A stretch of 64,000 bases of DNA. Source: Aurantibacter sp. Its GTDB lineage: Bacteria > Bacteroidota > Bacteroidia > Flavobacteriales > Flavobacteriaceae. Location of the stretch: NCBI RefSeq assembly GCF_039941195.1, contig NZ_JBDVFA010000098.1, positions 99,775 to 163,774 of the forward strand, in the 5' to 3' direction. A program made the translations under genes and the position numbers. Shown here one piece after another: positions 40,098-64,000 of this stretch; positions within the stretch are counted from its first letter, which is position 1; each line of letters begins with the position of its first letter. Under the pieces are notes generated by a model. The model made no database searches. It saw only the letters and a program-made list of their open reading frames with translations, and was not told the origin of the DNA.

Positions 40098-40958
40098 TTA
40101 ATGATGCAATTTTTTAGATCGTAACAATTGCAATAACAATTCGGGTTCATCAGTTTGAATCATATTTGCTCCGTATTTTAAAACTTCATCAAGTACTTTT
40201 TCTCCCTTTCCATAACGAATTTGTGCATCTAATTCGCCCAAAGTATTTATCCAAATTCTTGAGTTGTTCTTTTTCAACAACACACCAACTTCTTTAGAAT
40301 TAAACTTAGAATCAATATGTACTACTGGTGGTGCAAATCTCGTAATAGCAGAATCCACCATTTTATATGAATATGCTCTTGGCATTAATTGTGCCGATTT
40401 ATCAAGCTCCAATATTCGATCTAACTGTTCATAATCATTATCAAAATAAAAAGCTTCTTTAGTTGTTCCCGTTTTTCTTAAAGCGGCTAAAATTCCTTCA
40501 ACATTGTCTGTTTTCATATCAATGTCAATCATAATTTTTCCCTTTGTAACTTTTAAAAACTCTTCAAATGTTGGCACGGTCTCTTCGCTGATTCTTCCGT
40601 AAGGTGCTTTAAGTTTAAACTTTCTAATTTCTGCAAAAGTCAACTCTTCAACCTTACCTTTTCCAGTAGTTGTTCTATCAATACTAGAATCGTGCATTAA
40701 AATTAAATATCCATCTTTTGTTGTTTTTACATCCGCTTCAATAATATCAACTCCTAATTTAATCGCTTGCTTTGTTGAGGCTATTGAATTCTCAAAATTG
40801 CCCATATAAGCACCTCTATGCGCAGCTACAAGAACTGTTTTAGCATTTGAATTATGAAATACCCTTAAAGTTTCATTAAGATTTGTAGCATTTTTGGTAC
40901 TCGCACAGGATATAAAAAAGACTGCTATAAAAAGAACTAAATAGTTTAGTTTTCTCAT
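40098..40958 (-). CDS. Glycerophosphodiester phosphodiesterase (GDPD) lipoprotein
   Basis: AAHRGA, ENSIAS, IIEADV, ILMHDSSIDRTT, MIDIDMK, IQTDEP; lipobox FISC. Confidence 0.92.
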   Translation of the reverse strand: MRKLNYLVLFIAVFFISCASTKNATNLNETLRVFHNSNAKTVLVAAHRGAYMGNFENSIASTKQAIKLGVDIIEADVKTTKDGYLILMHDSSIDRTTTGKGKVEELTFAEIRKFKLKAPYGRISEETVPTFEEFLKVTKGKIMIDIDMKTDNVEGILAALRKTGTTKEAFYFDNDYEQLDRILELDKSAQLMPRAYSYKMVDSAITRFAPPVVHIDSKFNSKEVGVLLKKNNSRIWINTLGELDAQIRYGKGEKVLDEVLKYGANMIQTDEPELLLQLLRSKKLHH

Positions 40959-40999
40959 TCTATTATTTTGTTAGCGATGGAGGGAAAAATTAAATAATA

Positions 41000-43201: not shown

Positions 43202-43540
43202 AATAAATTAGAATTATTTCAATGGATAAAATTACCCATATACCTCCATGCTTGTTTCATCATTATTGATTAAAATACATTAAATATTGACCTGAAATAA
43301 AATATAAAAAAACTCCTAAACACTTTAATATCAACAATTTCATTATATAATTGCATGGTTTTCAATTAAATTAATGTATTTTTTACAACAATTAAAGCTA
43401 AAACAGCATTATTGACCATAAGTCAAAAAAATGCTGTTCGGGTTAATTTTCCATATAAATAAATCAATTATTATGTGGTGAAATATTACTAACATTAGTA
43501 CATTTATTCTAAACACATATAGAATATTATTATAAGTATT

Positions 43541-45511
43541 ATGAATTGGAACAAGCCACTTTTTTTAATAACATTATTCCTAATTCTCGCTTATGATGTA
43601 AATGATAAACCTAACGAGTTATCTCGAACTTTATCTCCAAAATTTGAAAGATTAGCATACAATAACCCAGACCTAACGGTAGACTTAGGGGTTGGTTTAT
43701 GGGCATCTCCACTACCTATTGATTATGATAATGATGGAGACTTAGACTTATTAGTTTCATGTAACGATGTTCCTTTTAATGGCATCTTCTTTTTTGAAAA
43801 TAAGAGTGGCGAGGCATTCCCTGTTTTTGAACCTCCTGTTAAGGTCAGTAAACCAATTAAACATATTCAAGTTTCATATGTTGATGGTAAACCTCGTTTT
43901 TTAAAACCAGGCCAAGAGCTTTTAGATTTTAAATCGTCTTTTAATGATAAAGGAGTTTCGCTGTTTCCAGGTAATACCTTTTCAAAACTTCATAACAACA
44001 TTCGTTTTAATCAATGGAAATATGTCGATTATGAAAATGATGGTGATTTAGATATTATTGTTGGTATTCAAGATGGCGAAGATTATGGCTGGGACAATGC
44101 TTTTGATGAAAATGGTATATGGACAAATGGTCCGCTACATGGTTATGTTTATCTTATTGAATATGATAATGGCGCATATAAATTGAAAGATAAAATATTA
44201 GCAAGTGGAGCACCTATTGATGTTTACGGAGCACCTTCTCCAAATTTTGACGACTATGATAATGATGGAGATCTCGATATTATTTGCGGGGAATTTTTAG
44301 ACAAATTTACCTATTTTGAGAATATAGGTACTCGAGAAAAACCAGAATATGCTAAAGGAAAATATCTTGAAAATGAAGCTGGTGTACTAACCATGGATTT
44401 AGAAATGATATTGCCAGTTTCATTAGATTGGGATAAAGATGGCGATATAGATTTAGTAGTAGGTGATGAAGATGGTCGCGTAGCATTTATAGAAAATACG
44501 GGAATAACCAAGAACGGGATGCCGATTTTTAACAGCCCTAAATACTTTAAACAGAAAGCAGAACACGTTAAATTTGGAGCACTTGTTACTCCATTTAGCA
44601 CGGACTGGGATGATGATGGAGATGAAGACCTTATCTGTGGCAATTCTGCAGGATATCTTTCTTTTATTGAAAATTTAGATGGCGCTGATACTCCAAAATG
44701 GGATGCTCCTAAATATTTAAAGAACGATGGTGAAGTTATAAGAATTCAAGCAGGTGAAAGTGGTTCTATTCAAGGGCCATGTGAAGCTAAATGGGGATAT
44801 ACAACATTATCCGTTGAAGATTGGAACAATGATGGCTTAAAAGATATTCTAGTAAATTCCGTCTGGGGAAAAGTAATTTGGTATGAAAACATTGGAACAA
44901 AAGGAAATCCAAAACTAGCCAAAGAACAACCCATTAAAGTAAAATGGGATAATGACACCCCTAAGCCCGAATGGTATTGGTGGGATCCTGAGCCTAATAC
45001 TTTAGCAACACAGTGGAGAACAACACCAAATGCTATTGATTGGAACAAAGATGGTTTAATGGATTTAGTTATGTTAGACCAAGAAGGCTATCTAAGTTTT
45101 TATGAACGCTTTAAAGATGGTGAAGATTTAATATTAAGACCTGGACAACGTATTTTTAAAACTACGAATGGCACTTATGACCGTAAGAACCAATTTATCA
45201 ATAAATCTAATGGCCCATTACGGCTTAGTGAGCAAAAATATGGCAGTAGTGGAAGAAGAAAATTAGCCTTTGGTGATTGGGATTTAGATGGTGATACTGA
45301 TATTTTAATAAACGGCATAAATGCTGCACTTTTAGAAAACACCAAACAAAATAAAAACCGAGTAGAATATAAATTCAAAGGTAACTTATCGAACATAAAA
45401 TTAGCAGGACACACGACGAGTCCAACTTTAGTTAATTGGGATAATGAAGGAAAGCCAGACTTACTTTTAGGAGCTGAAGATGGCTATTTTTACTACTATA
45501 AAAATGACTAG
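43541..45511 (+). CDS. FG-GAP/VCBS repeat beta-propeller protein
   Basis: At least seven DxDxDGDxDL repeats (DYDNDGDLDL, DYENDGDLDI, DWDKDGDIDL, DWDDDGDEDL, DWNNDGLKDI, DWNKDGLMDL, DWDLDGDTDI); N-terminal hydrophobic segment. Confidence 0.9.
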   Translation: MNWNKPLFLITLFLILAYDVNDKPNELSRTLSPKFERLAYNNPDLTVDLGVGLWASPLPIDYDNDGDLDLLVSCNDVPFNGIFFFENKSGEAFPVFEPPVKVSKPIKHIQVSYVDGKPRFLKPGQELLDFKSSFNDKGVSLFPGNTFSKLHNNIRFNQWKYVDYENDGDLDIIVGIQDGEDYGWDNAFDENGIWTNGPLHGYVYLIEYDNGAYKLKDKILASGAPIDVYGAPSPNFDDYDNDGDLDIICGEFLDKFTYFENIGTREKPEYAKGKYLENEAGVLTMDLEMILPVSLDWDKDGDIDLVVGDEDGRVAFIENTGITKNGMPIFNSPKYFKQKAEHVKFGALVTPFSTDWDDDGDEDLICGNSAGYLSFIENLDGADTPKWDAPKYLKNDGEVIRIQAGESGSIQGPCEAKWGYTTLSVEDWNNDGLKDILVNSVWGKVIWYENIGTKGNPKLAKEQPIKVKWDNDTPKPEWYWWDPEPNTLATQWRTTPNAIDWNKDGLMDLVMLDQEGYLSFYERFKDGEDLILRPGQRIFKTTNGTYDRKNQFINKSNGPLRLSEQKYGSSGRRKLAFGDWDLDGDTDILINGINAALLENTKQNKNRVEYKFKGNLSNIKLAGHTTSPTLVNWDNEGKPDLLLGAEDGYFYYYKND

Positions 45512-49209: not shown

Positions 49210-50613
49210 TCACTTAGGGTCTGCAAAATCCTTTTTAAGTCTCATTGGAGTATCAGGCACTTTATTAATTAAAGTCTTTTTACCATTCTTTTTCACAATT
49301 TCAAAAGCATCGTAGAGGGTTCCGATAGGAGTATAAGCCCCGTAACTTATAGTATCTTCTGACACTGTTATAATTTGAAAAAGCTGTGTATACTCACCTC
49401 TTCGCACCATCCATTCTTGGTCTTGCGATTCATACATTTTTGGCCCACTAACAGAAACTGCATAAACTGTTCCTGCATCTTCTACCACAGTTAAACCCTT
49501 GCCTTCATTTTCAGGAAATCCTCTAGCATAGGTATGATCATGCCCTTGCAATACCAAATCCACTTCATATTTGTCTATCAACGGTTTTATGGCTTCTCTT
49601 AACTCCCAATTATCTCTACCTTCTTTTGTGGAGTAGACAGGATAATGCGTAGTTATTGTTATCCATTTTTTCGTGTTTGATTGTAAAACTGAATCGAGCC
49701 ATTTTACTTGAGCAGTTCGCGCATCCATACTTTCATCAAAACCTTCACTATCTATAGATATCAATTTCATATCTTGATAATCAATTGCGAAACAAGTTTC
49801 TTTCAATGCTTCACTAGGTCCGTTTTCTGGTAAAGTAAAGCTAGGCCTCCATAAAGAAGTTAGTACTCCGTCTCTATATTCATGATTACCAGGTGTCATT
49901 ACACTTGGCACTGTCGCATGAATAAAACTACCAGCATGAAACCATTCTCCCCATTCCAAATTCGCATCTCTATCATTAATTAAATCGCCTGCATGTAACA
50001 TAAAATCTACCTGAGGAAATTGGCGATATGAGTTTCTAATTACTCGTGACCATAACGATTTCACATTATTTTGAGCATCACCAAAATAGATAAAACTAAA
50101 AGGTTCTTTACCTCCTATACGAGCAGTTGTTATTTGAAACCACTCGCTCCAATAGCCATTATCTTTTTCACCATTCCCAACGCGATATATATATGTAGTA
50201 TTTGGCTTCAAATTTTTAATTAATGCGGAGTGATATGTAGCCTTTACAAGGGGTTCATTTCTATTCTGATTTTCAAATTTCTGAGAGATAGCTGTTACCT
50301 TTTTAACATCACGTAATAAAAATTCAGGACCATCAGTTGCTAACGCTACTTCTACAATTCCTTTTTTTACCTGCTGATCCGTTCGCCAATTCACTGCAAA
50401 AGTATGCGCAGGATTTTCGGTAAGGTTTGATATTATACGGTCTGGTGTATTGGATGGAAATATTAATTTATGCGCAGGTATCGAATCATGCGTTGTATAA
50501 TGTGAATGGCTATGTTCTACTCCATTTTGATGTTTATGTTGTGCTTGGATATTTATGCTTAACATAAACATCATTGAAAAAACTGTAAGACTATTTGTTA
50601 TCCTCATCATCAA
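49210..50613 (-). CDS. Secreted purple acid phosphatase-family metallophosphoesterase
   Basis: Signal peptide (IQA/QH) followed by a His-rich segment; FGDAQN, HAGDLIN, PGNHE, TTHYP, LQGHDHTY. Confidence 0.9.
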   Translation of the reverse strand: MMMRITNSLTVFSMMFMLSINIQAQHKHQNGVEHSHSHYTTHDSIPAHKLIFPSNTPDRIISNLTENPAHTFAVNWRTDQQVKKGIVEVALATDGPEFLLRDVKKVTAISQKFENQNRNEPLVKATYHSALIKNLKPNTTYIYRVGNGEKDNGYWSEWFQITTARIGGKEPFSFIYFGDAQNNVKSLWSRVIRNSYRQFPQVDFMLHAGDLINDRDANLEWGEWFHAGSFIHATVPSVMTPGNHEYRDGVLTSLWRPSFTLPENGPSEALKETCFAIDYQDMKLISIDSEGFDESMDARTAQVKWLDSVLQSNTKKWITITTHYPVYSTKEGRDNWELREAIKPLIDKYEVDLVLQGHDHTYARGFPENEGKGLTVVEDAGTVYAVSVSGPKMYESQDQEWMVRRGEYTQLFQIITVSEDTISYGAYTPIGTLYDAFEIVKKNGKKTLINKVPDTPMRLKKDFADPK

Positions 50614-53191: not shown

Positions 53192-53197
53192 CTATTA

Positions 53198-54115
53198 TTA
53201 AGATTCTGCCATAAATTCTTTTTCAAAATTTTCTATATGACATTTTACTTTTTCTCTTTCTGGTTGTTCAAACCTATGTAATGGCATAGCCATGTGATCT
53301 TCACAAATTCCTTTTATAGACAATGCACATTTAATACCTTTTGTCACTCGTGACGCGGTAGTGCCAACACTATAGATAGTTTCATCTATTTGTGTTACTT
53401 GTCTATGTAACGCAGCTATTTTAAAGTCGTCTTTAGCTACTGAAGCATTATACAGTTCTACAAACAATTTTGGAAATACATTTGCACCACCGGCAACTGC
53501 TCCATCACCACCGTGTTTAATAGTAGCAGGCAAATAACCCTCAGAACCAGCTATTACTAAAAATTCTGGTGAATCTTTAAAAGCGTCAATTAAATTATAT
53601 AAATAATCAAGGTCACCAGAGCTGTCTTTTACACCTAAAGCACCCATTTCCTTACCTTTTTTTATTGTATTTAAAGAAAGGTTCATTTTCGTACAACTGG
53701 GCATATTATATAGCAAAAACGGCAATTCCAATTTCGGTATCAAGGTATTCAAATATTCGTCCATTTCAGCATCGGAAATTGGAAAATAATACGGAGGTGC
53801 AATCACCACAGCATCAGCACCTGAGGCTTTGGAATGTGCTGCTATTTCCACAGAGCCTTCAAAAGAGGTATCCGTAATCCCCACTAAAACAGGCACTCTT
53901 TTATTGATGTACTCGCAAGATTTTGTAATTAAATCCTTGCGAACTTCATTGCTTAAACTAGGACCTTCTCCGTTGGTTCCTAGAATAAAAATACCGTGAA
54001 CTCCACCAGATATTAAATGTTCAATTAAATTCTTTAAACCTTTGTAGTCTAATTTGTAATCCTCCGTAAGAGGAGTAATCATTGGAGGGATAATTCCTCT
54101 CAAATTTAAAGTCAT
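53198..54115 (-). CDS. DHDPS/NAL-family class I aldolase (copy 1)
   Basis: PPMITP, GTNGEG, APPYY, LLYNMP, GVKDSSGD (Schiff-base Lys), GAVAGGAN. Confidence 0.9.
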   Translation of the reverse strand: MTLNLRGIIPPMITPLTEDYKLDYKGLKNLIEHLISGGVHGIFILGTNGEGPSLSNEVRKDLITKSCEYINKRVPVLVGITDTSFEGSVEIAAHSKASGADAVVIAPPYYFPISDAEMDEYLNTLIPKLELPFLLYNMPSCTKMNLSLNTIKKGKEMGALGVKDSSGDLDYLYNLIDAFKDSPEFLVIAGSEGYLPATIKHGGDGAVAGGANVFPKLFVELYNASVAKDDFKIAALHRQVTQIDETIYSVGTTASRVTKGIKCALSIKGICEDHMAMPLHRFEQPEREKVKCHIENFEKEFMAES

Positions 54116-54254
54116 ATCGCTTACTTAATTCAAGCAAAGTAAATTTAATTAGCTCCAATACGCCACTATTATTTTACATAAATCTTATGTTATTTTAACC
54201 TAAAATATCAAAAAAAATTACTATTATTGATAATAAGAGTTAAAATACTTAGAT

Positions 54255-55103
54255 ATGGAATTTGTTTGTGAAAAAATATTTGTGCCCAATAATCATTCTT
54301 TTATATCACGTAAACTACCCCTTTCATCTAACGCAAGAATTCACTCACATAAAAATTTTGAGTTAAATTATATTACCTCTGGTGTGGGAAGAAGGATTGT
54401 TGGTGATAATATATCAGGATTTGAAAAAGGAGACCTCGTACTTTTAGGTCCAAACTTACCTCACTGCTGGGAACTGCTTGATAGTGAAGGAAATGAGGAG
54501 CCAACTTGTATTGTAACTCACTTTTCTGAAAATATTATTGATTCTGATTTCTTTCAAATGCCAGAACTCGAGAAAGTAGTAGACCTTCTTAAGCTATCGA
54601 ATAGAGGTATTCGATTTAAATTAGATGATGATTCTGAAATAAAACATATTCTAGAAAGCATGGCAAATAGTAATGGCCTTGAATATTATATTGGCTTGCT
54701 TAAAATTTTCAATAATTTGATAAAAGTAGAAGACAGAGATAGGTTGTCTAACCCTATCGATCGTTCATCTGTGTTCTCTAAGAATATCGACAAAGTAAAT
54801 AAAGTGTACGAATATGTATTCCAAAATATTCAAGAAGGTATAAAACTAGAAGAAGCCTCAGCTGTGCTAAATATGGCTCCAAGTTCTTTTTGTCGCTTCT
54901 TTAAAAAGAAAACAGGACATACTTTCATGGAATATGTAAAAAATGTACGCGTAGGAATTGCGGCAAAATTATTGGCAGAAACTGACAAACAGATTACACA
55001 GATATGTTTTGAAAGTGGCTATAATAATTTAGCAAATTTCAATCACTATTTTAAAGCCAATATGGGGAAGACGCCTTCGGACTATCGTAAACATTTTAGA
55101 TAA
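54255..55103 (+). CDS. AraC-family transcriptional regulator
   Basis: Cupin N-domain HSHKNFELNYI...GPNLPHCW; C-terminal FCRFFKK...ICFESGYNNLANFNHYFK..GKTPSDYRK. Confidence 0.95.
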   Translation: MEFVCEKIFVPNNHSFISRKLPLSSNARIHSHKNFELNYITSGVGRRIVGDNISGFEKGDLVLLGPNLPHCWELLDSEGNEEPTCIVTHFSENIIDSDFFQMPELEKVVDLLKLSNRGIRFKLDDDSEIKHILESMANSNGLEYYIGLLKIFNNLIKVEDRDRLSNPIDRSSVFSKNIDKVNKVYEYVFQNIQEGIKLEEASAVLNMAPSSFCRFFKKKTGHTFMEYVKNVRVGIAAKLLAETDKQITQICFESGYNNLANFNHYFKANMGKTPSDYRKHFR

Positions 55104-55138: not shown

Positions 55139-56416
55139 CTACCCAAACTCAAAACGGTTATGACTACCGTGCAATTCAGCATTATAACTTACTGCAATTA
55201 TAGATAGTATTGCCAGAACCGTAAGTATCGCCAATAAATAAATAAGCCATTTTTTAGTAATTAATTGAACTGTTGTTTTTTGCACATCTTTTATTTCATG
55301 TTTTTTAGCTAAAAAATAGATTAGGATAATATTCAAAATGTACAGGTGATGATTTAATCCTAATTTGCCTGCAAAAAGACCAGTCACAACATAACTCATT
55401 AATGCATAACTACCTAAATAGGTAAAGAAGAATAAGGCTACATCATTTTTCTTATAATTATTATCATTCAATTTCCAAAATAGTACAAGAGCAACTATAA
55501 GCAAAACAATAGCGGCAAAAGCGGTACTTGAAAATGCAACTTGTTCTACGCTTTGGATCTCACCTAAACGTCTTAATATATGTTCATAGGCCAAAGATTC
55601 TCTATAAACGATAAGTGGAATAAAAACGAGTAGCACAAACAAAGCAACCCTATTTACCCAATTCTTTGGTTTCGCATCTTCATCAACCGGCCATTTTGAT
55701 GAAAACACACCATATGCCATTCCAGTACCCCCAAAAAAACCAATGCTGTATTCCATGACATTCCACATATTAAATGGAATTTCAAATACATTACCAGTTA
55801 CATGCAAAAAATTTCCAAAACCAAAACCAAAACCACCTCCAAGTGCCGAAAATATGGCTACCCTAATTGCAGAGTTTCGATTTGTTCGAGCCATATGTAA
55901 AAGCATAGCTAAACCAGCTCCAAAAATAAATGCCCAAGCTTCAGATCGTGGAGGAGTCATTTTAAAACCAATTTGCTCAATCAAAAAGAAATAAGTCAGT
56001 AACCCTCCAGCAACCATTTCCGATACCAAGGCACCCCATGAAACTTTATTGCTTTTTGTTGAATCAATCACTAGCCCCACTAATCCTCCACCGAGCACAC
56101 CAAATAAAGCACCAATTACAAAAAGCATACTAAAGCCATAAAAGACATTAATAAAATTGTCAGCTCTACCATAGCCAACTACTACCCCATAACTTATCAT
56201 ACCTCCTGCTCCCCATCCAATGGCAGATACAAGTGCAAGTATTGGCATTTTAGCATACCAATCCTTTCTATTCGAAACTAAAACTAATGCCAATGCTCCA
56301 ATAGCTCCAGCCCATGCAGCACCCTGCTCATGTCCAAACTGACCTCTTATAGCCCATGCAGTTGCCAAAGCCATACCGACGATTATTAAACTTATGCCTT
56401 GCTTTTTAATATTCAT
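55139..56416 (-). CDS. Uncharacterised polytopic membrane protein
   Basis: About 11-13 Gly/Ala-rich hydrophobic segments; AWAIRGQFGHEQGAAW; MEYSIGFFGG. No family recognised. Confidence 0.75.
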   Translation of the reverse strand: MNIKKQGISLIIVGMALATAWAIRGQFGHEQGAAWAGAIGALALVLVSNRKDWYAKMPILALVSAIGWGAGGMISYGVVVGYGRADNFINVFYGFSMLFVIGALFGVLGGGLVGLVIDSTKSNKVSWGALVSEMVAGGLLTYFFLIEQIGFKMTPPRSEAWAFIFGAGLAMLLHMARTNRNSAIRVAIFSALGGGFGFGFGNFLHVTGNVFEIPFNMWNVMEYSIGFFGGTGMAYGVFSSKWPVDEDAKPKNWVNRVALFVLLVFIPLIVYRESLAYEHILRRLGEIQSVEQVAFSSTAFAAIVLLIVALVLFWKLNDNNYKKNDVALFFFTYLGSYALMSYVVTGLFAGKLGLNHHLYILNIILIYFLAKKHEIKDVQKTTVQLITKKWLIYLLAILTVLAILSIIAVSYNAELHGSHNRFEFG

Positions 56417-56427
56417 TTGTACTCGTT

Positions 56428-58197
56428 TTAGTATTTAATAGTATAATTTCCTTTGCTGTATTTGAGATTGGATACAACACTTATTTTATTAAGGATGTGA
56501 TCATAATTCCATTGCTTCTGATTCAATTCTTGCTGGTCGAGAATTATTTTTTGAGGAACGGTTTCAGAATAAATTTTTAAAATATGACCCACCTTATTTC
56601 CCGAGATATTAATTTTTAATTCTTTACGATTTTTTTGATATGAAATTATCGTTTGCTCTCTCGTAAGCGTATCATAATATATAAATGAATTACTAGTATT
56701 GGGATAAATTAAAACAGTTAAAAAACCATCGGAAGCACGATTTCCAAATCCGGTATAATCGCGTTTTACGGCTAAAGGAATAATGGCTCCTTCTTTTACG
56801 AAAACCGGAAATTCATCTATTGGGAATTCTTTTGTAAAAGTACTTCCCCCATCCATTAATTCTTTATCATCAAAAAAATACCTCCATTGACCTTCAGGTA
56901 AGGAAACCACTCTATTTTTAGTGTCTTTGTAAATAGGGGCAATTAGAAAATCATCACCGAACATATAATGATATTTTCCTTTTTTCAAAGGAGATTGCAA
57001 TCGCCTTCCTCCATCATGAGCAGTAACTACATAATGGTACATATAGGGAACCAATTCTGTATGTAACCAGGAGAACTTTCGAATAATTTCTAATTCTTCT
57101 TGACTTCTTTTCCATAATCTTCGTTCTCCATGTCCGCCATTCAAAAATAATCCACAAAACGTTGAAAATTGAGCCCAACGAATATACAATCGAGGCGGAA
57201 TTGTTTTTCCAGAAAAACCAGCAACATCAGATCCAACAATATTATACCCAAGTTCAGCGCTTTCGAGAATATTCTCAATAGCAGATTCAAAACCTTGAAT
57301 CCCGTCAAGGGCAATATCTACTTTGTCATTCTCCTCAGCTAACATTTCATCTGTAACCCATTTGTGTTCTTGATCACCTACCCAATTTACTGGCGAAGCA
57401 TCAATTGGTGCAAAACCCTCGGGGTGATAACCTCTATCAATAGACCTAGATAAAGTTATAAATTCTGGGTTCTGTGTTAATCCATGTTCATATTCATCTC
57501 GGTAATAGTGATTCATATAAGTTCGTGCTGACATTAGTCCATCTGCAGTATTTTTATAGAAGAATGGAATTCCTAAAACATCGCTCCAAAAAAGAGTAGC
57601 AGTTCCATCAAGTTTCCAACCATCAATACCTAAATCAAAAATATTTTGTTGCATACTCCTCCACCAACGCATCGCCTCCGGATTACTATAATCTATAAAC
57701 CCTCCTTTACCTTTCCACCATGTATTTGCACTTTTAGATTTTGCCAAATATCCCTTTTTCATAGCGTCTTGATACCAAACTGAATCATGTTTAATTCTGG
57801 TATCCTTGCTATAACTATCTACCATTGAGGTCATCCAAAGAACCACACGATAACCTTCATTTTCTAAATTTTTAAACCATTTATCAGGTTTTTTATATAG
57901 CAATGTGTCAACCTCAAAATCGTTATAACGAAGCGACCACGGACTGTCTAATACAATGGTTCGAACAGGAATATCATGAGCCTTATACCCTGCTAATAAT
58001 TCATCTACAATTTCAGAATTATTGACATCATCTTCCCATAACCAACATTCTAATGCCCATGCCGGTGTTAAAGGTGGATTTCCATGTCTTTGTGAATTAA
58101 ACGGCATTCCCCAAATAGGAAGAAACCAATAAAAATATGATACTATAAATAATACACCTATGGACCAGACTAAAACCTTTAAAACCTTCTTTTTCAT
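56428..58197 (-). CDS. GH31-family glycoside hydrolase with N-terminal membrane anchor
   Basis: IVLDSPW, GYRVVLW, GFIDYSNPEAMRWW, DGWKLDG (nucleophile), WVGDQ (acid/base), GSDVAGF, YIRWAQF, YMFGDDFLIAP. Confidence 0.88.
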   Translation of the reverse strand: MKKKVLKVLVWSIGVLFIVSYFYWFLPIWGMPFNSQRHGNPPLTPAWALECWLWEDDVNNSEIVDELLAGYKAHDIPVRTIVLDSPWSLRYNDFEVDTLLYKKPDKWFKNLENEGYRVVLWMTSMVDSYSKDTRIKHDSVWYQDAMKKGYLAKSKSANTWWKGKGGFIDYSNPEAMRWWRSMQQNIFDLGIDGWKLDGTATLFWSDVLGIPFFYKNTADGLMSARTYMNHYYRDEYEHGLTQNPEFITLSRSIDRGYHPEGFAPIDASPVNWVGDQEHKWVTDEMLAEENDKVDIALDGIQGFESAIENILESAELGYNIVGSDVAGFSGKTIPPRLYIRWAQFSTFCGLFLNGGHGERRLWKRSQEELEIIRKFSWLHTELVPYMYHYVVTAHDGGRRLQSPLKKGKYHYMFGDDFLIAPIYKDTKNRVVSLPEGQWRYFFDDKELMDGGSTFTKEFPIDEFPVFVKEGAIIPLAVKRDYTGFGNRASDGFLTVLIYPNTSNSFIYYDTLTREQTIISYQKNRKELKINISGNKVGHILKIYSETVPQKIILDQQELNQKQWNYDHILNKISVVSNLKYSKGNYTIKY

Positions 58198-58202: not shown

Positions 58203-59639
58203 TTACAAGGTGTTTTTTAGTCTGAAAAATCGAAAATATGCTACTATCCCAGAATAGAACAGAAGTATAAGTCCCATTGGCCCAAGCAGTAAACTATATT
58301 CTTTATACACTTTACTATACCCTATTACAGCTTCTCCTTTAAGAAAATAATTAATGGCTAAAACAATCATAAATATGGAACTTATACCTGCCAATATAAA
58401 TAGTCCACTACATTTGATGTTCGAAACTTTTTTTATTCTAGTTATTAAATATTGAAATATTAACAACCAAGCAATCCAAGACACTACTTGCCATATATTT
58501 AAAGTTCTAAAATAATTTACTGCAGTTGCAAAAGGTCTAAAAGCCAAATTAGTTTTAGTATAAAAAGGGCGGTCTTTATATACTAAAATTTTAATGTTTT
58601 CTTGAGTCCCACTTTTTAAAATGGACAAAATTGTTTGTTCTTTTGTGCCAACATCTAAATTACTCCAATTCTCAATTTCAAATGCATTGTATAAAGAACA
58701 AGCCCTACCATAACCATGAAAATCCAGACCTCCAATCATGGTTAATTTATGTTCTTCACAAAAGTTTCTAATTGTTTCAAAAATTTCTCTATCGTAATAT
58801 AGGTCAGTCGCTGTATTTTCAATTTCAAAGCCATCAACGCCTAGCCGTTGATACACCTCTATATCTTTTCCTTTCCCGTCAAACCAATGATTAATAATAA
58901 CAGCTCCACCATATTTATGCACCGAGTCTATTACCGCTTTATCAGTCATCCCTTTGGTTTCAAATGTACCACTCAGTCCAAGTAAACTCATATGGTTACT
59001 ACCTGAAAACTCTTCTCCAACCATTACCAAAGGAGCATCTAACTTTTTAATTTTTTTCTGATTCTTAACAAGCTCTAAAGTTTTCTTATGGTTTGCATGG
59101 TCTGTAATAAAAAAGGCATCAAATCCATTTCTTTTATGCCACTGCATCATTTTCTCTTGTGAAATTAGTCCATCGTGACTGTACTCGGTATGAGCATGTG
59201 TTGTCACTAAAACAGAATTTTTGGAGTTGTTTACAATTGTATTATTTGGCAGAGGGATAAAGAGGATTAAAACAAAAATTGCAAAGCAAATACCCAAAAC
59301 AATAGGCACGTTTACAATTTTATAAATTATAAACTTTTTGCGATTAACGCTATTTCCAAAAAATTTAATCATGCAATAAACCAGGTATGCAATAAGTAGC
59401 CACATTAAGGCATAAGGCAATTCTTCTAATACGTATAATGATCTATTTAAGAATAATATCAGCCCTAAAAAAGGCTCAAAAAAAACACGCCAAAATGCTA
59501 TTTTTACATCAAAATCGGCTTCAGGTAGTAATGTTAAAGCATTTTCAAAATGTATCGGAAAATGAAAAATAGTAGCCAATAAAACGATGGATAAAATCAC
59601 GATTACAACGCCTAGCCTTTGCATTCTAATTTTATCCAT
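58203..59639 (-). CDS. Membrane protein with PHP-family phosphoesterase domain
   Basis: HAHTEYSHDG, FITDH, GEE...HM, INHW, GFEIEN, GLDFHG (complete PHP ligand set), flanked by TM clusters at both ends. Confidence 0.85.
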   Translation of the reverse strand: MDKIRMQRLGVVIVILSIVLLATIFHFPIHFENALTLLPEADFDVKIAFWRVFFEPFLGLILFLNRSLYVLEELPYALMWLLIAYLVYCMIKFFGNSVNRKKFIIYKIVNVPIVLGICFAIFVLILFIPLPNNTIVNNSKNSVLVTTHAHTEYSHDGLISQEKMMQWHKRNGFDAFFITDHANHKKTLELVKNQKKIKKLDAPLVMVGEEFSGSNHMSLLGLSGTFETKGMTDKAVIDSVHKYGGAVIINHWFDGKGKDIEVYQRLGVDGFEIENTATDLYYDREIFETIRNFCEEHKLTMIGGLDFHGYGRACSLYNAFEIENWSNLDVGTKEQTILSILKSGTQENIKILVYKDRPFYTKTNLAFRPFATAVNYFRTLNIWQVVSWIAWLLIFQYLITRIKKVSNIKCSGLFILAGISSIFMIVLAINYFLKGEAVIGYSKVYKEYSLLLGPMGLILLFYSGIVAYFRFFRLKNTL

Positions 59640-59658
59640 CGTTATATATAATTTCGAT

Positions 59659-60570
59659 TTACTTTATTAGACTCCCTTCTATTTTAAATAAATTCCTCTT
59701 TACAATGTTACTTTGTTCATGAGAAAGTTTCTGCAATGGTACAGCCATATAATCGTTACAAACACCCATTATTGCCAATGAACCTTTAATTGCTTTGATA
59801 CTGCTAGTTGGCGTATTATTTATATGATATATATTTTCATCAATAGCATATACTTTTTTTCTAAGTTCATTTATAGCGAGTTCATCTTTATTTACACATG
59901 CTTGGTATAGTTCAACAAAGGTTTTTGGACTAAAATTTGCACCTCCTGCAACCGCTCCATGGGCTCCTTTAGCCATTGCCTCAGAAATAAAAAGTTCATT
60001 TCCTACAATAATTGAAAATTCAGGATCATCTTTAAACGCTTCAATAATTTCATATAAGGATTCCATATCTCCTGAACTATCCTTCACTCCAATAGCACCC
60101 AACTCTCTAGCTTTCTTAACAATATTTACCTTTAAGTGCAGTTTTGTACAACTTGGAATATTATACAAAAGAAAAGGCAAGGGTAATTGTGGCGTTAAAA
60201 TTGATAAATATTCAATCATCTCCTCTTCCGAAATTGGAAAATAATATGGTGGTGCTACAACCAAAACATCTACTCCAGCCTCCTTTGAATAACTTGCAAT
60301 ATCCAAAGTACCCTCTAAAGAAGTATCGGTTATTCCAACTAATACTGGCACTCTACCATTAATAATTTCGCAAGCCTCAGAAATTAATTGTTTTCTTATT
60401 CTATAGCTTAAACTGGGTCCTTCCCCATTAGTTCCTAACAAAAATATACCATGAACACCACCTTCAATCAAATGTTCAATTATACTTTTTAAACCAATAC
60501 TGTCTAGTTCTCTATTTTCCAATAGAGGCGTAATCATCGGAGGAATAATTCCTTTTAATGGCAATTTCAT
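59659..60570 (-). CDS. DHDPS/NAL-family class I aldolase (copy 2)
   Basis: PPMITP, GTNGEG, APPYY, LLYNIP, GVKDSSGD, GAVAGGAN; close paralog of 53198-54115. Confidence 0.9.
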   Translation of the reverse strand: MKLPLKGIIPPMITPLLENRELDSIGLKSIIEHLIEGGVHGIFLLGTNGEGPSLSYRIRKQLISEACEIINGRVPVLVGITDTSLEGTLDIASYSKEAGVDVLVVAPPYYFPISEEEMIEYLSILTPQLPLPFLLYNIPSCTKLHLKVNIVKKARELGAIGVKDSSGDMESLYEIIEAFKDDPEFSIIVGNELFISEAMAKGAHGAVAGGANFSPKTFVELYQACVNKDELAINELRKKVYAIDENIYHINNTPTSSIKAIKGSLAIMGVCNDYMAVPLQKLSHEQSNIVKRNLFKIEGSLIK

Positions 60571-60755: not shown

Positions 60756-60808
60756 AAATTGAACTGGTTTTTATCAAGTTCGTTTGGTTATTATTTTAAG
60801 CTACAAAT

Positions 60809-62467
60809 TTAATAGGGCTTATTGGTGCCTTGTAAAAGCCACATTTTAGACCAAGCACTGTTGTTAGTTGCATCATCACCTTTAAATGCTGTGGTTTCCA
60901 ATCTTCCTATTGCGGCATCTGCATTAGTTGCGTTATTATCTATTTCGTCTATATGATAGTAAAAGCGTAAAGGTAGCGCAGGTCTTTTTGCAGCGGCTCC
61001 CGCTTGTAAATCAGGAATTCCTGTTCTTCTATAATCGAACCAGGCTTCTGCCGCAGACGACCAGTTTGCAATCCATTTTTGCTTTAGTATATCGTCTGGT
61101 TCGGTGTAAGCCGCAGGACCAGCAATGTAGTCGTTATATGCGTCACCAACTCCCCAAGCATTAAAGGATTGTTTTATTGCTTCATTATAATAGCCTGATA
61201 CTGCACCATTCGCCCAACCTTTAGTTGCAGCTTCCGCTTTAATAAAATTGACTTCAGCTGCAGAAATTAAACGGGCTTGTAATAAATCACCACTAGCTTC
61301 TTTATAAATATCATTTAATTGAGAAACATGTAAATTAAGTGCTCCTTGATTTAGATTTTCACTTAAATTATAAGCAATACCGAATGTCATACCGGTGGGC
61401 AAGCCTACATACTCTTTATCATAATCAACAGGAAAGCCTACAATATCCTCATATGCATCAACTATATCTTGTGAAACATGTCGTTCTCCATCTTCTACAT
61501 AATCAGTTCCATCAGGAGCCCCAGCATCCAAAACAAGAGGGATGTCAATTTGATTTGCCCATACGCCTAATCGAGGGTCATTCAATGCTTGCAATTCGTC
61601 AACTAAAGTTGCCCCCATTTTTATTCTAAAATAAGACCCCTGCGAATCTGAATCAAACTTTGTGTTTGTAGGCCAAGAATCGACACTTGTATTTCCAACA
61701 TAAGCCATGTTCGCATCATCTGCTGCATCTATAATTAATGGATATAATTGTGGGTTTTGTAAAATCTTTTTTATCCCTTGCTCTGCCCAAGCTGGCTCCT
61801 TAACCGATAAGCGCATATAATATCGTAAAGCCAATGAATTGGCAAATTTTCTCCATTTAGCAACATCCCCTCCAAATAAAATATCCTGATCAGCTTGTAT
61901 ACTAAAATATGACCCTTGATCTTTAGATAGCAATGAATTCGCAGTTTCTAAATCCATCAAAATACCTTCATAAATTGACCTTTGATCATCAAATACTGCA
62001 TCAAAAAATTCTGCTCCTTCATTACCTCTTAGAGCTTCAGAATAAGGTGCATCACCCCATAAATCTGTTATTAAACCAAATAGGAAAGACTTCATAACTA
62101 GTCCTGCACCTTGATGAAATTCTAGTTCATCAGCCTCTGCCTTTTCTATCATGTTTTTATTATTCGTCAATAAAGTATAGTAACCATTCCAACTATGAGA
62201 ATCGTTACTCCAATCATAGGCATTATGTCCACTAGACCAACCATCCTTTTGTGTGTGTTGCATTACCCCAGCAATGTCTCCAAAGCCCAAGCTAACTACA
62301 GCTTTACCCGCACCATTAATTACGGTTGGCAGGAGTAGATTGGGATCCACATTTTCTGAACCAATTTGATTAGGGTTTTCGTTCAAATCTTCTAGTCCGT
62401 GACAAGAGACTAAAAGAATAAGACCTAAAACCAATAGGGCTATTTTATTGTTATTAGCATTGTTCAT
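60809..62467 (-). CDS. SusD/RagB family lipoprotein (SusD-like_2 type)
   Basis: Lipobox LVSC; TDLWGDAPYSEA, KWRKFANSLALRYYMRLS, DPRL, QKWIA, EAWFDYRRTG, PLRFYY. Confidence 0.93.
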   Translation of the reverse strand: MNNANNNKIALLVLGLILLVSCHGLEDLNENPNQIGSENVDPNLLLPTVINGAGKAVVSLGFGDIAGVMQHTQKDGWSSGHNAYDWSNDSHSWNGYYTLLTNNKNMIEKAEADELEFHQGAGLVMKSFLFGLITDLWGDAPYSEALRGNEGAEFFDAVFDDQRSIYEGILMDLETANSLLSKDQGSYFSIQADQDILFGGDVAKWRKFANSLALRYYMRLSVKEPAWAEQGIKKILQNPQLYPLIIDAADDANMAYVGNTSVDSWPTNTKFDSDSQGSYFRIKMGATLVDELQALNDPRLGVWANQIDIPLVLDAGAPDGTDYVEDGERHVSQDIVDAYEDIVGFPVDYDKEYVGLPTGMTFGIAYNLSENLNQGALNLHVSQLNDIYKEASGDLLQARLISAAEVNFIKAEAATKGWANGAVSGYYNEAIKQSFNAWGVGDAYNDYIAGPAAYTEPDDILKQKWIANWSSAAEAWFDYRRTGIPDLQAGAAAKRPALPLRFYYHIDEIDNNATNADAAIGRLETTAFKGDDATNNSAWSKMWLLQGTNKPY

Positions 62468-62489
62468 AGCGATGTCAGTTTAAATTTTA

Positions 62490-64000
62490 TTAAAATGTGA
62501 TTCCGATTTTAATTCCTATTGGAACTAACCATGGATCTACATTATATCTTTCTATACCTTGTTTAAATTGTGTACCTCTGTTCCCTGAACTTGTTTCGGC
62601 TTGAAAAGCACGTTCTGGATCTATTCCAAATTCAGAGTCTTTAGTCCATAACATTATATTTCTACTATAAAGAGAAACACTCAAATTATCTATGGCGGTT
62701 CTTTCTATAAATTTTGAAGGCAAATCATAAGACAATGACACCTCTCTAAGTTTCACATAATCTGCATCAAACATATGCGGTGTACCAAAGTCCCATGGGT
62801 TGGCAACTGAAAATGGAATAAAAGCGGTGCCTGCTTCTCCTAAATTTTCAGATTCTAATATAAAATTACCATTCTCATCATGCGTTCCTACAACCCCCGC
62901 GTTAAAAATACCATCATAAACAACACTTCCCCCTAAATCTTGAGCAAAACCTCCATTGCTTGGTGGACCACCAATAGACAAGAAGTTTTCACCATAAATT
63001 AGTAAATCTGCGTTATCCAAAACCCATTGTTTCAATTCTGGTCCGGGTTCAGAAATACCAGGGTTTATAAGATTATTTAATATTTGTTGTCCATATCCAT
63101 CCTCAACCATGTATCTGCTGGTTTGCGACATGTACTGTCCACCTGAACGCCAATCAAATGTCAAGTTTAAAGAAAGGTTTTTGTATGATAAGGTTGTTTG
63201 TAAACCCATTACAAAATCAGGATTATAATTACCAACTTTTACACGTTCGTCTTGCGCGAGCCACTCAGCATCTTCACCTGAACCCAATAATGGATAATTG
63301 TAATATGGTGAATTTACATCAGTAACTCTTTTTATTAACGGCGAGTAAATATTGCCTACTAAACCATCTTCACCAGTTGCTGCATTTGCCACATAACCTC
63401 TTGAAACACTTTTGTTTTCACTCCAAAATTCTATATAATCGACACCATCAGATAATTCTAATATGGTCGATTCATTGGTCGTATAATTTAAATTTACATC
63501 CCAATTAAAATTCTCCGTACGAACTGGTGTAAAACCTAATGAAAGCTCTAGACCTTTACTTTCCAAAACACCTGCATTAATACTAACACTATTATAACCC
63601 GATGACCCAGGAATAGGAATATTAGGTACAATTTGATTTCTATTTTCTACAGTGTAATATGTACCTTCAAAACGAAGTCGGTTCGAGAACATATTTAAAT
63701 CAATACCAATTTCTTGAGAAGTTGCTTCTTCTGGTTCTAGATTAGGTGTATTTAAACCACTTTGACCACTATATAAAACTGCATTTTCCCATTGACCATT
63801 GTTATTAAAATAAGAGCTTAATTGATATGGGCTAGTATCGTTACCTACTCTTGCCCAACCTGCTCTTACTTTTAGTAAATCTACTTTGGGAATACTCACT
63901 AATTCACTCACCAATAAGCTTAATGAAGCAGATGGATAGAAATAAGAACGGTTATCAACAGGTAAAGTACTCGACCAATCATTACGAGCAGTTACATCTA
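62490..64000 (-). CDS. SusC/RagA family TonB-dependent transporter, 5' part outside the window
   Basis: Frame stays open to the window edge (DVTARNDWSSTLP...YFYPSAS); KVRAGWARVGND, DADYVKLREVSLSY, C-terminal GIKIGITF. Confidence 0.95.
   Translation of the reverse strand, partial: DVTARNDWSSTLPVDNRSYFYPSASLSLLVSELVSIPKVDLLKVRAGWARVGNDTSPYQLSSYFNNNGQWENAVLYSGQSGLNTPNLEPEEATSQEIGIDLNMFSNRLRFEGTYYTVENRNQIVPNIPIPGSSGYNSVSINAGVLESKGLELSLGFTPVRTENFNWDVNLNYTTNESTILELSDGVDYIEFWSENKSVSRGYVANAATGEDGLVGNIYSPLIKRVTDVNSPYYNYPLLGSGEDAEWLAQDERVKVGNYNPDFVMGLQTTLSYKNLSLNLTFDWRSGGQYMSQTSRYMVEDGYGQQILNNLINPGISEPGPELKQWVLDNADLLIYGENFLSIGGPPSNGGFAQDLGGSVVYDGIFNAGVVGTHDENGNFILESENLGEAGTAFIPFSVANPWDFGTPHMFDADYVKLREVSLSYDLPSKFIERTAIDNLSVSLYSRNIMLWTKDSEFGIDPERAFQAETSSGNRGTQFKQGIERYNVDPWLVPIGIKIGITF

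Follow-up and report, generated by a model that had tools for sequence, protein, structure and literature searches.

The question raised by this locus is what kind of molecule is consumed through a SusCD pair whose companions include two sugar-acid aldolases, a sialic-acid-type transporter and several phosphoesterases. The locus lies in the 4.5-Mb genome assembly of Aurantibacter sp., in a window of 64,000 nucleotides corresponding to C98:99775-163774, where C98 denotes contig NZ_JBDVFA010000098.1; the segment in question is 40098-64000. The open reading frames (ORFs) of the window were listed and their proteins were scanned with Pfam and NCBIfam profiles.

The segment forms the middle of a catabolic system that comprises several operons. 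The functional readings given here rest on sequence, fold, synteny and motif. On this basis there is an even chance that the system imports and dismantles a glycoconjugate that is amphiphilic, phosphorylated and both N- and O-acylated, with a 2-keto-3-deoxy (ulosonic) sugar acid other than N-acetylneuraminic acid (Neu5Ac) in its head group. [quoted passage not shown]

Organization and conservation of the system

The SusC gene runs past the end of the window, and the full gene, which reaches window-equivalent 65888, encodes 1132 aa and is preceded by the gene of a PKD-domain lipoprotein. SusC and SusD are adjacent, 22 nt apart. Two further tight runs of genes are found in the segment (Table 1). 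The first begins with DHDPS1, an aldolase of the dihydrodipicolinate synthase/N-acetylneuraminate lyase (DHDPS/NAL) family, and continues with a PHP metallo-phosphoesterase, a GH31 glycosidase and a polytopic membrane protein (MEM), at gaps of 19, 5 and 11 nt. The second begins with the related DHDPS2 and continues with a symporter (SSS) and a Gfo/Idh/MocA oxidoreductase (Gfo), at gaps of 6 and 15 nt, and with a purple acid phosphatase (PAP) after a further 85 nt. When contig C98 was read to its end, a divergent operon of eight genes was found upstream of PKD-SusCD, outside the window. It encodes a 433-aa protein, a PhoPQ-related α/β-hydrolase, an AXE1-like esterase (AXE), a YdjC deacetylase, a BASS (SBF) transporter, a sialidase-fold BNR_2 protein and a pair that carries the N-domain of neutral ceramidases. 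Both members of this pair have a paralog in the 433-aa protein, and there are three ceramidase-like amidases (Cer) in total. The system measures ~45 kb here, and ~90 kb together with a neighbouring second SusCD locus.

Every gene named in the segment by an earlier reading of the sequence (the original prediction) was recovered in its place by the ORF listing and the profile scans, and a TlpA/ResA-like lipoprotein gene at 45538-46671 was found to be missing from that gene list. The statement that only one recognisable carbohydrate-active enzyme is present holds inside the window; beyond it the statement is an edge effect, with BNR_2 just past the window end and GH92 and GH2 in the neighbouring sub-locus.

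A first synteny matrix covered ±10 kb around the PHP gene in 54 related loci, and an extended comparison covered ±30 kb in ten genomes, with all encoded proteins clustered. The matrix gave the pattern PKD-SusCD-DHDPS-PHP-(GH31)-MEM-AraC-DHDPS-SSS-GFO-PAP. GH31 adjoins PHP in 29 of the 54 related loci, MEM is present in 30 (tblastn), and the AraC regulator is syntenic in 33 (77-98% identical). U750, U733, FG-GAP and GDPD (Table 1) appeared unlinked in this matrix, a result overturned by the ±30 kb flanks, which show linkage in 5-6 genera.

Nine Flavobacteriaceae genomes of eight genera (strain EG-1, Aurantibacter, Pricia, Ulvibacterium, Zobellia, Maribacter, two Arenibacter and Sediminicola) have the syntenic ensemble Cer-Cer-BNR2-SBF-YdjC-AXE-PhoPQrel-Cer <-> PKD-SusCD-DHDPS-PHP-(GH31)-MEM <-AraC-> DHDPS-SSS-GFO-PAP-(U750)-FGGAP-U733-GDPD. 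The divergent Cer operon and PKD-SusCD are kept in all nine with small variations; in Arenibacter and Sediminicola the gene set is kept and its order rearranged. Among laboratory strains, Zobellia amurskyensis KMM 3526, Maribacter polysiphoniae DSM 23514 and Aurantibacter crassamenti have the locus. PAP follows GFO in 6/9 extended loci, U750 follows PAP or SSS in EG-1, Ulvibacterium and Maribacter, and FG-GAP comes after PAP in five of the genomes and stands between PAP/U750 and U733 in five genera. U733 is also syntenic in 6/9; in Sediminicola, SusD and a second BNR_2 gene immediately precede it. A GDPD gene is part of the locus or next to it in 8/9 and adjoins PHP in Prolixibacteraceae. The PHP protein has 472 homologs in a large protein collection and relatives in 118 species representatives.

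Synteny of this kind, over nine genomes from eight genera of Flavobacteriaceae, shows that the grouping of these genes is not chance. Unlinked sub-blocks in relatives had been named beforehand as an outcome that would speak against the original prediction; the blocks are linked across genera and stay together in all nine genomes. As in a polysaccharide utilization locus (PUL), an adjacent SusCD pair is present, and degradative enzymes are co-localised with a dedicated AraC regulator and a shared operator-like motif and kept as a unit in these genomes.

A conserved operator-like motif

The AraC-DHDPS2 and Cer-operon/PKD intergenic regions of this genome have in common a motif of 31 nt, GGTTAAAAT-N15-(T/C)AAAATA. 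At 54170..54200 it reads GGTTAAAAT-N15-TAAAATA and lies ~35 nt upstream of a Bacteroidota-type -7 box. The PKD-SusC operon is preceded by the same architecture at window-equivalent 67024, and motif and -7 element span 66 nt in total before both the DHDPS2 and the PKD operons. The AraC-DHDPS2 intergenic block is conserved in 38 orthologous regions and the Cer-operon/PKD block in 25.

A pattern combining operator and -7 box was too strict (0 matches), and the operator-only pattern was used for counts. It has 3 matches in the whole genome, against about 1 in shuffled sequence, and all three stand before operons of the system. The third site, of the same architecture and one nucleotide longer, precedes a D-2-hydroxyacid dehydrogenase-metallophosphoesterase operon on a second contig (C97), and a partial match precedes the ortholog of this operon in Maribacter. 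In the related loci (1.74 Mb), 27 of 39 matches precede DHDPS or PKD. The genome-wide search gave no match before the U733 or the Cer operon in this genome. A sigma-70 promoter/terminator scan was uninformative (78 sites, 86 expected). The rare, conserved operator-promoter architecture common to the SusCD and DHDPS2-SSS operons argues for co-regulation of at least two operons by a common regulator, most simply the adjacent AraC.

A proposed branch for an ulosonic acid other than Neu5Ac

Among PDB entries, the SSS protein is best matched over its full length by the sialic acid transporter SiaT (5nv9, 238 bits); the next SSS reaches 126 bits. In SiaT, the carboxylate is bound by Ser60, Thr63 and Arg135 and the glycerol tail by Thr58 and Gln82, and the N-acetyl pocket is lined by Phe78, Gly81 and Phe243 (PMC5931594). 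In the locus protein the carboxylate ligands S60/T63/R135 are S/S/R, as befits the SiaT subgroup, the glycerol ligands T58/Q82 are Y/A, and the N-acetyl pocket F78/G81/F243 is P/F/G; Asn247 is kept and Gln250 is replaced by Asn (Q250N). The residues expected of the Neu5Ac-binding transporter of a canonical nan cluster (T58, F78, G81, Q82, F243 and Q250) are therefore all replaced. This ten-residue binding-site signature is invariant in 24 locus orthologs. The Gly81-to-Phe change would fill the N-acetyl pocket. Because the carboxylate triad is kept and the remaining pocket sites are changed, and invariantly so, the cargo is predicted to be a carboxylated sugar unlike Neu5Ac at the 5-substituent and the tail.

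The two aldolases are 57% identical to each other and 24-30% identical to the other DHDPS-family genes of the genome, where two further members occur elsewhere. DHDPS1 is below all NCBIfam equivalog cut-offs. Against the N-acetylneuraminate lyase models the two aldolases score 82-113 bits (DHDPS2 95-113 bits; cut-offs 382 for TIGR00683 and 281 for NF003164), and against dapA 162-167 bits (cut-off 206), so that neither model identifies them as NanA or DapA. The best PDB match of DHDPS2 is 4xky, a 'DHDPS' of B. thetaiotaomicron (4.8e-84, about 50% identity), followed by YagE (2e-43), an aldolase of 2-keto-3-deoxy sugar acids, which is a closer PDB relative than any NAL. The name of 4xky had suggested DapA; this assignment was rejected in view of the score below the dapA cut-off, the catabolic operons and the low identity to the other DHDPS genes of the genome. 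The 4xky entry may itself represent a catabolic aldolase subfamily rather than DapA, to judge from its ~50% identity to the locus aldolases.

In NCBIfam, Gfo scores highest against Gfo6 xylose 1-dehydrogenase (137 bits) and then IolG (117 bits), well short of the cut-off in both cases, and its best PDB match, 4had (1e-58), has no assigned function; a role in aldose or acid conversion is a guess. The BNR_2 protein has a BNR_2 domain (2e-86), two Asp boxes and invariant R234, R291, E316 and Y327. Its matches to sialidases in the PDB are weak (1e-5) and include the NanB/NanC sialidases and the sialidase-like chain of 5mqr. The BASS transporter is PanS-like, and transporters of this kind carry 2-oxo or hydroxy acids.

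The SiaT-like symporter with its altered pocket, the two NAL/YagE-like aldolases and the sialidase-fold protein together support the view that an ulosonic acid other than Neu5Ac would be released, imported and split into pyruvate and an aldose. An ulosonic-acid substrate had been among the options of the original prediction, and it gains from the carboxylate triad of the SiaT-type symporter and from the sialidase-fold gene and BASS transporter in the adjacent divergent operon. Two other routes were considered and rejected. A complete Dahms/Weimberg pentose pathway (GH31 α-xylosidase, xylose dehydrogenase, aldolase for 2-keto-3-deoxyxylonate) would need a lactonase and a dehydratase, which are absent, and the transporter is of the sialic-acid type; for a hydroxyproline route (DHDPS with a PutP-like SSS), no supporting genes were found.

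Predicted membrane-anchored hydrolases and putative lipid-directed enzymes

Hydropathy predicts three transmembrane (TM) helices before and two to three after a periplasm-facing PHP domain. The Pfam PHP match covers the first motif only; the metal ligands H148, H150, E152, H155, D156, D180, H181, E210, H216, H251, D306 and H308 are all invariant among 14 homologs of 49-75% identity. The GH31 protein has one N-terminal TM helix, directly after which, at residue 41, the barrel starts; the N-terminal beta-sandwich domain of the family is absent. Its best PDB match, YicI, reaches only 1e-28, the 'GWKLD' motif (D197) being aligned with the nucleophile motif of YicI, and there is a ~100-aa insertion between the catalytic motifs. 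The acid/base is taken here to be D275 of a W-V-G-D275 motif, in an unaligned stretch. Sulfoquinovose or sulfoquinovosyldiacylglycerol was considered as the GH31 substrate and rejected, no supporting genes having been found. MEM has no Pfam or NCBIfam family in the profile scans, and a 28%-identical paralog family adjoins GDPD-PHP in Prolixibacteraceae.

Two of the ceramidase-like proteins (Cer1 and Cer2) and AXE have N-terminal segments resembling signal anchors. The motifs HTH, xHP, PGE and GYI are common to the three ceramidase-like paralogs and presumably correspond to the zinc ligands (His, His, Glu, Tyr) of neutral ceramidase. The Pfam neutral-ceramidase N-domain match (1.6e-14) covers the first half only, the NCBIfam score is 24 bits against a cut-off of 1200, and Cer1 matches the Pseudomonas neutral ceramidase 2zws at 6e-7. 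At 433-521 aa, compared with 646 aa for 2zws, these proteins are without the C-terminal Ig-like domain of neutral ceramidases. YdjC matches carbohydrate deacetylases and HpnK, a glycolipid deacetylase.

Membrane anchors are thus predicted on six proteins (PHP, GH31, MEM, Cer1, Cer2 and AXE). The occurrence of six membrane-anchored hydrolases together with amidases and esterases suggests that the substrate is lipid-anchored or partitions into the membrane. The glycolipid or LPS-type option raised by the original prediction is strengthened by these anchors, the three ceramidase-like amidases, the two esterases and the YdjC deacetylase.

Propeller-barrel proteins and GDPD

U750 and U733 are 30% identical over their full length (E 3e-86). 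The PDB matches of U750, 3v9f and 4a2l, cover the N-terminal half only. An AlphaFold2 model of U733 (pLDDT 86.4, pTM 0.87) has a beta-propeller like that of hybrid two-component system (HTCS) proteins at about residues 20-308 and an (α/α)6 barrel at about 310-733. In Foldseek, the whole model gave propeller matches only, and the barrel domain alone (pLDDT 80) gave cellobiose 2-epimerase/AGE, GH76, GH88 and GH9 proteins with a best E of 5e-3. U733 has 2538 homologs, all 'hypothetical'; in those listed, at least 58% identical, the first barrel helix begins with invariant D349, D351 and N352. U733/U750 may plausibly represent a new family of carbohydrate-active proteins. The proposal that the depolymerising enzymes are among the unannotated proteins is a tentative one that draws on this weak (α/α)6-barrel fold resemblance. 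The best NCBIfam match of GDPD, below cut-off, is lysophosphatidylglycerol phospholipase D.

The second SusCD locus

By collinearity with strain EG-1 (87-90% nucleotide identity), the end of contig C97 lies ~4.3 kb from that of C98. A second SusCD locus (C97:22594-51445, loci L006/L007) is found there, separated from the divergent operon by ~7.5 kb; in Aurantibacter the ceramidase-like genes are its immediate neighbours. It contains GH92, adjoined by two U733/U750 paralogs (U745/U708), and DHDPS3 paired with an MFS transporter; further members are DUF3748, a SIS isomerase of the GmhA-like kind, a ROK kinase and a protein of 775 aa whose GH67N/GH20b matches are weak. Beyond its SusD and SusC there are an SSS, a GH2 protein (Ig_GlcNase) with the Ig domain of exo-beta-glucosaminidases, a DegT aminotransferase of the ArnB/PseC-like kind paired with a Gfo, a GDPD and a HAD protein. 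This second Gfo is best matched by IolG (167 bits, below cut-off).

The GmhA-like gene (sedoheptulose-7-phosphate isomerase family; C97:33283-33918, - strand, L006:11284-11919) lies between the ROK kinase and DUF3748 and is the only copy of the genome. No HldE above cut-off was found in the genome, and a canonical ManA is present elsewhere. A sole GmhA-like gene inside a PUL and beside a ROK kinase, in a genome with ManA and without HldE, is compatible with heptose catabolism, in which its product might serve as the heptose-phosphate isomerase.

In Prolixibacteraceae, a single locus combines the families of the two sub-loci, mingled and in a different order: GH2-ROK-MFS-DegT-GFO-MEM-like-...-MEM-PHP-GH92-GH92-DUF3089-GDPD-HAD-Cer-esterase-Cer-Cer-PhoPQrel-SusD.

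The SSS paralog of the second locus (C97:43043-44548, L007:1044-2549), which adjoins GH2 and DegT, has Asp at four Neu5Ac-binding positions of SiaT (58, 63, 82 and 135), and its orthologs are found in Aurantibacter, Pricia and the related loci L073, L074 and L080. The Asp lining suggests a cationic cargo such as an amino sugar. Right beside this sub-locus, the operon at C97:20398-22512 encodes the D-2-hydroxyacid dehydrogenase and a metallophosphoesterase with a twin-arginine translocation (TAT) signal; its neighbours are an M19 dipeptidase, a 342-aa protein of no named family, an AGE-family 2-epimerase and a TAT-Gfo/DUF6807 pair.

Proposed route and the case for LPS

The following route may be proposed. 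The PKD lipoprotein, SusD and SusC would capture and import the molecule or its fragments. Exported enzymes would trim phosphate esters, acyl or acetyl groups and outer sugars; candidates are PAP, GDPD, U750/U733 and FG-GAP, and, from the divergent operon, one ceramidase-like amidase, the PhoPQ-related hydrolase, YdjC and the sialidase-fold protein. The lipid-anchored remainder would partition into the inner membrane, where the periplasm-facing anchored PHP, GH31, MEM, two ceramidase-like amidases and the AXE-type esterase would remove phosphoesters, an alpha-linked sugar and acyl chains. The released ulosonic acid would enter through the SiaT-like symporter, possibly also through the BASS transporter, and would be cleaved to pyruvate and an aldose by DHDPS1 and DHDPS2. 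Gfo may oxidise the aldose or convert an anhydro or dehydro form of the acid. AraC would switch on at least the SusCD and DHDPS2-SSS-GFO-PAP operons through the shared operator.

By family matches, a candidate is present for each bond class of Kdo-lipid A. For the ketosidic bond of Kdo these are the BNR_2 hydrolase, SiaT-like/BASS uptake and the aldolase; for the 1-/4'-phosphate and phosphoethanolamine, PHP, PAP, Metallophos and GDPD; for ester-linked acyl chains, AXE and the PhoPQ-related hydrolase; for amide-linked ones, the ceramidase-like amidases; and for the beta-1,6-linked glucosamine disaccharide, GH2. The α-linked core sugars may be met by GH31 and GH92, and the amino sugars by DegT with Gfo and by the Asp-lined SSS. 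The exo-beta-glucosaminidase-type GH2, the DegT-Gfo pair, the Asp-lined SSS and the GmhA-like isomerase of the second locus count further for LPS. The known Kdo hydrolase is sialidase-like (PMC3573668), and Escherichia coli imports Kdo through the sialic acid transporter, according to work cited in PMC12199768.

Several points weigh against this interpretation. All NCBIfam matches of key enzymes are far below cut-offs. The BNR_2 protein has no N-terminal RIP-type arginine motif, and no lactonase, sugar-acid dehydratase or kinase is found in the locus. The ceramidase-site assignment and the link of the PhoPQ-related family to LPS are presumptive. One assembled Prolixibacteraceae region of 61 kb contains no DHDPS, BNR_2 or SiaT-like SSS, so that the ulosonic branch may have been added in Flavobacteriaceae and not belong to the core. 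Among the listed homologs, the named isolates and the metagenome sources look marine or sediment-derived, which is unexpected for a substrate as universal as LPS. Lastly, inositol-phospho-glycolipids would account for the GH92 alpha-mannosidases, the three GDPDs and the IolG-like Gfo enzymes about equally well. This fit to glycosylphosphatidylinositol (GPI) or glycosylinositol phosphoceramide (GIPC), the Prolixibacteraceae gap and the origin of the homologs are the reasons why the general proposal is given no better than even chances and why LPS stays a tentative choice within it.

Alternative substrates

The alternative that survives best, still an unlikely one, is a eukaryotic inositol-phospho-glycolipid: a GPI anchor, free GPI, or the GIPC/mannosylinositol phosphoceramide (MIPC) of algae, fungi or protists. 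Cleavage of the inositol-phosphate diester would then fall to GDPD, removal of ethanolamine-phosphate and phosphate to PHP and PAP, and that of alpha-mannose and alpha-glucosamine to GH92 and GH31; the lipid would be stripped by ceramidase-like enzymes and esterases, and inositol would be oxidised by Gfo enzymes. Three GDPD genes are spread over two sub-loci, and GDPD adjoins PHP in Prolixibacteraceae, where PHP is also flanked by GH92, the neighbour of U745/U708 here. The ceramidase-like triplet has a place in this scheme, an SSS with an acidic pocket would suit free glucosamine, and most of the listed homologs belong to isolates from the sea or to metagenomes of marine or sediment origin. 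IolG is the best match of the second Gfo, but IolG matches are far below cut-off, and the GH2 domain is known from beta- rather than alpha-glucosaminidases. The SiaT-like symporter, the two aldolases under the same regulator, the sialidase-fold protein and the BASS transporter are left without explanation.

A soluble phosphorylated polymer, such as a Kdo- or ulosonate-containing capsule, a teichoic-acid-like phosphoglycan or a phosphomannan, is quite improbable. The anchors would then do no more than keep enzymes in the periplasm, and sugars would be the substrates from which the ceramidase-like proteins take N-acyl groups. Such a polymer would agree with normal SusCD import, which concerns soluble glycans, with the GH92, GH2 and GH31 content, with the distant GH76 likeness of the (α/α)6 barrels, and with GDPD-type enzymes, which degrade glycerol-phosphate polymers; the best model of GDPD itself is the phospholipase D noted above. 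Six membrane-anchored hydrolases, including a PHP domain between two TM bundles, would be unusual for it; the neutral-ceramidase fold is known for lipid amides, and two esterases and the PhoPQ-related hydrolase would be surplus.

More doubtful still is a variant sialoglycan or sialo-glycosphingolipid locus for ganglioside-like lipids, or lipids bearing deaminoneuraminic acid (KDN), of algae or animals. Its steps would be a sialidase, an O-acetyl esterase, ceramidases, the SiaT transporter and a sialate lyase, with Gfo acting like NanOx/YjhC on anhydro or dehydro sialic acid. No other solved structure comes near SiaT as a relative of the SSS, the best PDB matches of BNR_2 are NanC and NanB, which release dehydrated sialic acids, and the transporter-Gfo-aldolase triad mirrors the known anhydro-sialic acid route. 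There are also the ceramidase-like genes and, in the neighbouring sub-locus, an AGE-family epimerase, a ROK kinase and an MFS-DHDPS pair. Several points speak against it: the Neu5Ac-specific SiaT residues are all replaced, invariantly; the aldolases remain at 82-113 bits where the lyase models require 281 and 382; the 50 best PDB matches of Gfo include no solved enzyme of the NanOx/YjhC type to which it is close; and five phosphoesterases (PHP, PAP, GDPD, Metallophos and the HAD protein of the second sub-locus) would have no role.

Least probable, and very improbable, is a mosaic with no common substrate, in which a phosphorus-scavenging SusCD, an operon for sugar-acid catabolism and exported proteins unrelated to either would have stayed neighbours through common descent: TlpA is confined to this genome, the GSDH, Kelch and cytochrome genes are kept in the two nearest relatives only, GH31, U750, SSS-GFO-PAP and U733 are each missing from some genera, and the U733 and Cer operons are without operator match, but the core families stay together through the Arenibacter/Sediminicola rearrangements and across orders into Prolixibacteraceae, and the SusCD and SSS operons share a rare conserved operator-promoter architecture.

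Comparison with known systems

The nan clusters of Bacteroidota combine SusCD-type sialic acid uptake (NanOU) with a sialidase, a NanA/NanL lyase and a transporter. In the present locus, too, SusC/SusD are linked to an enzyme of sialidase fold, to an aldolase of the NAL family and to a transporter of the inner membrane that is predicted to carry a carboxylated 2-keto-3-deoxy sugar. In contrast to the nan clusters, its aldolases fall short of the NanA models, the N-acetyl/glycerol pocket of its SiaT-like protein is replaced, its operons have neither NanE nor NanK, and it adds PHP, PAP, GDPD, Metallophos (and HAD in the second sub-locus), three ceramidase-like amidases and the anchored PHP and GH31. 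SiaT of Proteus mirabilis (5nv9; PMC5931594) resembles the locus SSS over the full length and in the carboxylate ligands and Asn247; it differs at T58Y, F78P, G81F, Q82A, F243G and Q250N, with the 5-N-acetyl site filled in the locus protein.

[quoted passage not shown] KdhAB remodels the LPS of its own cell, however, whereas the context of the present locus is nutrient uptake, and no small membrane partner stands next to BNR_2.

The 2-keto-3-deoxy sugar-acid aldolases YagE/YjhH of the oxidative Dahms-type pentose route and 4xky, whose function is uncertain, are the nearest solved relatives of the aldolases and have the K-D-S-S-G Schiff-base motif region in common with them. As in that route, the aldolases have a partner of the Gfo family, for which the best model is that of a pentose 1-dehydrogenase; unlike it, the locus has no lactonase or sugar-acid dehydratase, and its transporter is not of the pentose type. 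The PusCD phosphate utilisation systems of Flavobacterium johnsoniae also place a SusCD pair beside exported phosphatases or phosphodiesterases, to which the present locus adds carbon-catabolic enzymes (aldolases, oxidoreductase, glycosidase), lipid amidases and esterases, and an AraC-type regulator. With YicI and other GH31 alpha-glycosidases, the GH31 protein has in common the TIM barrel with an aligned nucleophile motif and the GH31 C-terminal domain. It departs from solved members in the TM anchor taking the place of the beta-sandwich, in the similarity of E 1e-28 or weaker and in the ~100-aa insertion.

Literature searches found no PUL for LPS or any glycolipid, no Kdo aldolase gene, no (ceramidase-like) lipid A amidase, no bacterial pathway for consuming glycolipids or LPS, nothing relevant on PqaA function and no work on this locus. 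The system is a PUL-type variant with several orphan families, for which no described counterpart was found in the literature.

It might be, though this is a tentative suggestion from sequence evidence, the first dedicated LPS-consuming system: a SusCD-based, AraC-controlled disassembly line of marine Bacteroidota that imports LPS or rough LPS fragments. GH31 and the propeller-(α/α)6 enzymes would strip the inner core, PHP would dephosphorylate lipid A and Kdo, and the PhoPQ-related and AXE hydrolases and the ceramidase-like amidases would remove ester- and amide-linked acyl chains. The sialidase-fold hydrolase would release Kdo, the re-tuned SiaT-type symporter would import it, and the 4xky/YagE-like enzyme would be the long-sought Kdo aldolase.

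Glycolipids and LPS of dead cells form a very large marine pool of organic carbon, nitrogen and phosphorus. If the proposal is true, it will provide a genetic handle on glycolipid and LPS turnover in the sea, and it will name a new SiaT specificity class, a membrane-embedded PHP phosphoesterase, an anchored GH31 without N-domain, bacterial ceramidase-like lipid amidases and a propeller-(α/α)6 family with >2500 members. Even with a eukaryotic inositol- or sialo-glycolipid as the substrate, the PUL concept would be widened from polysaccharides to amphiphilic glycoconjugates.

Features of the segment and neighbouring genes

Table 1. Features of the segment in window positions, with strand and the basis of each assignment
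Feature	Position	Strand	Basis
SusC-type TonB-dependent transporter, C-terminal part	62490..64000	-	profile matches; contig read on past window
SusD-like lipoprotein	60809..62467	-	Pfam SusD-like_2, 1.4e-73; syntenic in relatives
DHDPS1, DHDPS/NAL-family class I aldolase 1, cytoplasmic	59659..60570	-	PF00701, 2e-50
PHP metallo-phosphoesterase, membrane-embedded	58203..59639	-	PHP domain and hydropathy
GH31 alpha-glycosidase with N-terminal TM anchor	56428..58197	-	Pfam GH31 TIM barrel and C-domain
MEM, polytopic membrane protein, roughly 8-10 TM	55139..56416	-	hydropathy
AraC-family regulator, cupin-type ligand domain	54255..55103	+	Pfam/NCBIfam; divergent from DHDPS2
Operator-like motif	54170..54200	-	conserved intergenic alignment block
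DHDPS2, DHDPS/NAL-family aldolase 2	53198..54115	-	best PDB match 4xky
SSS, SiaT-like Na+/carboxylated-sugar symporter (predicted)	51707..53191	-	5nv9 (SiaT), 2.3e-69
Gfo/Idh/MocA oxidoreductase, cytoplasmic	50699..51691	-	Pfam
PAP, purple acid phosphatase, secreted	49210..50613	-	Pur_ac_phosph_N and Metallophos; signal peptide
U750, lipoprotein, 750 aa	46781..49033	-	HTCS-like beta-propeller and alpha-rich C-domain; Reg_prop matches
TlpA/ResA-like thioredoxin lipoprotein (DUF4369 and thioredoxin fold)	45538-46671	+	between U750 and FG-GAP
FG-GAP/VCBS propeller protein	43541..45511	+	PF13517, 4.6e-25
U733, secreted, 733 aa	41000..43201	-	beta-propeller and (α/α)6-barrel domain; no Pfam family above cut-off
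GDPD-family phosphodiesterase lipoprotein (GDPD and DUF4996)	40098..40958	-	Pfam; 41 nt after U733

TlpA is absent from all 54 related loci and present only in this genome, and it looks like a recent insertion. It lies outside the conserved unit, as do the genes below 40098. There, at 36291-40028 of the window, a multihaem c-type cytochrome, a Kelch/NanM-like propeller lipoprotein and a glucose/sorbosone-dehydrogenase-like protein (GSDH) are encoded, which are syntenic only in EG-1 and Aurantibacter, the two nearest relatives.

A 216-aa polytopic membrane protein is found between MEM and AraC in 21 related loci (Arenibacter, some Maribacter and others; for example L018:12892-13542) and is absent here. 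In EG-1 and Aurantibacter, ~10 kb downstream of GDPD (for example 51756-54664 of the Aurantibacter assembly), there are a 602-aa SSS and an HGSNAT-like membrane protein, of the heparan-α-glucosaminide N-acetyltransferase type; enzymes of this type acetylate free glucosamine residues prior to the cleavage of those residues.

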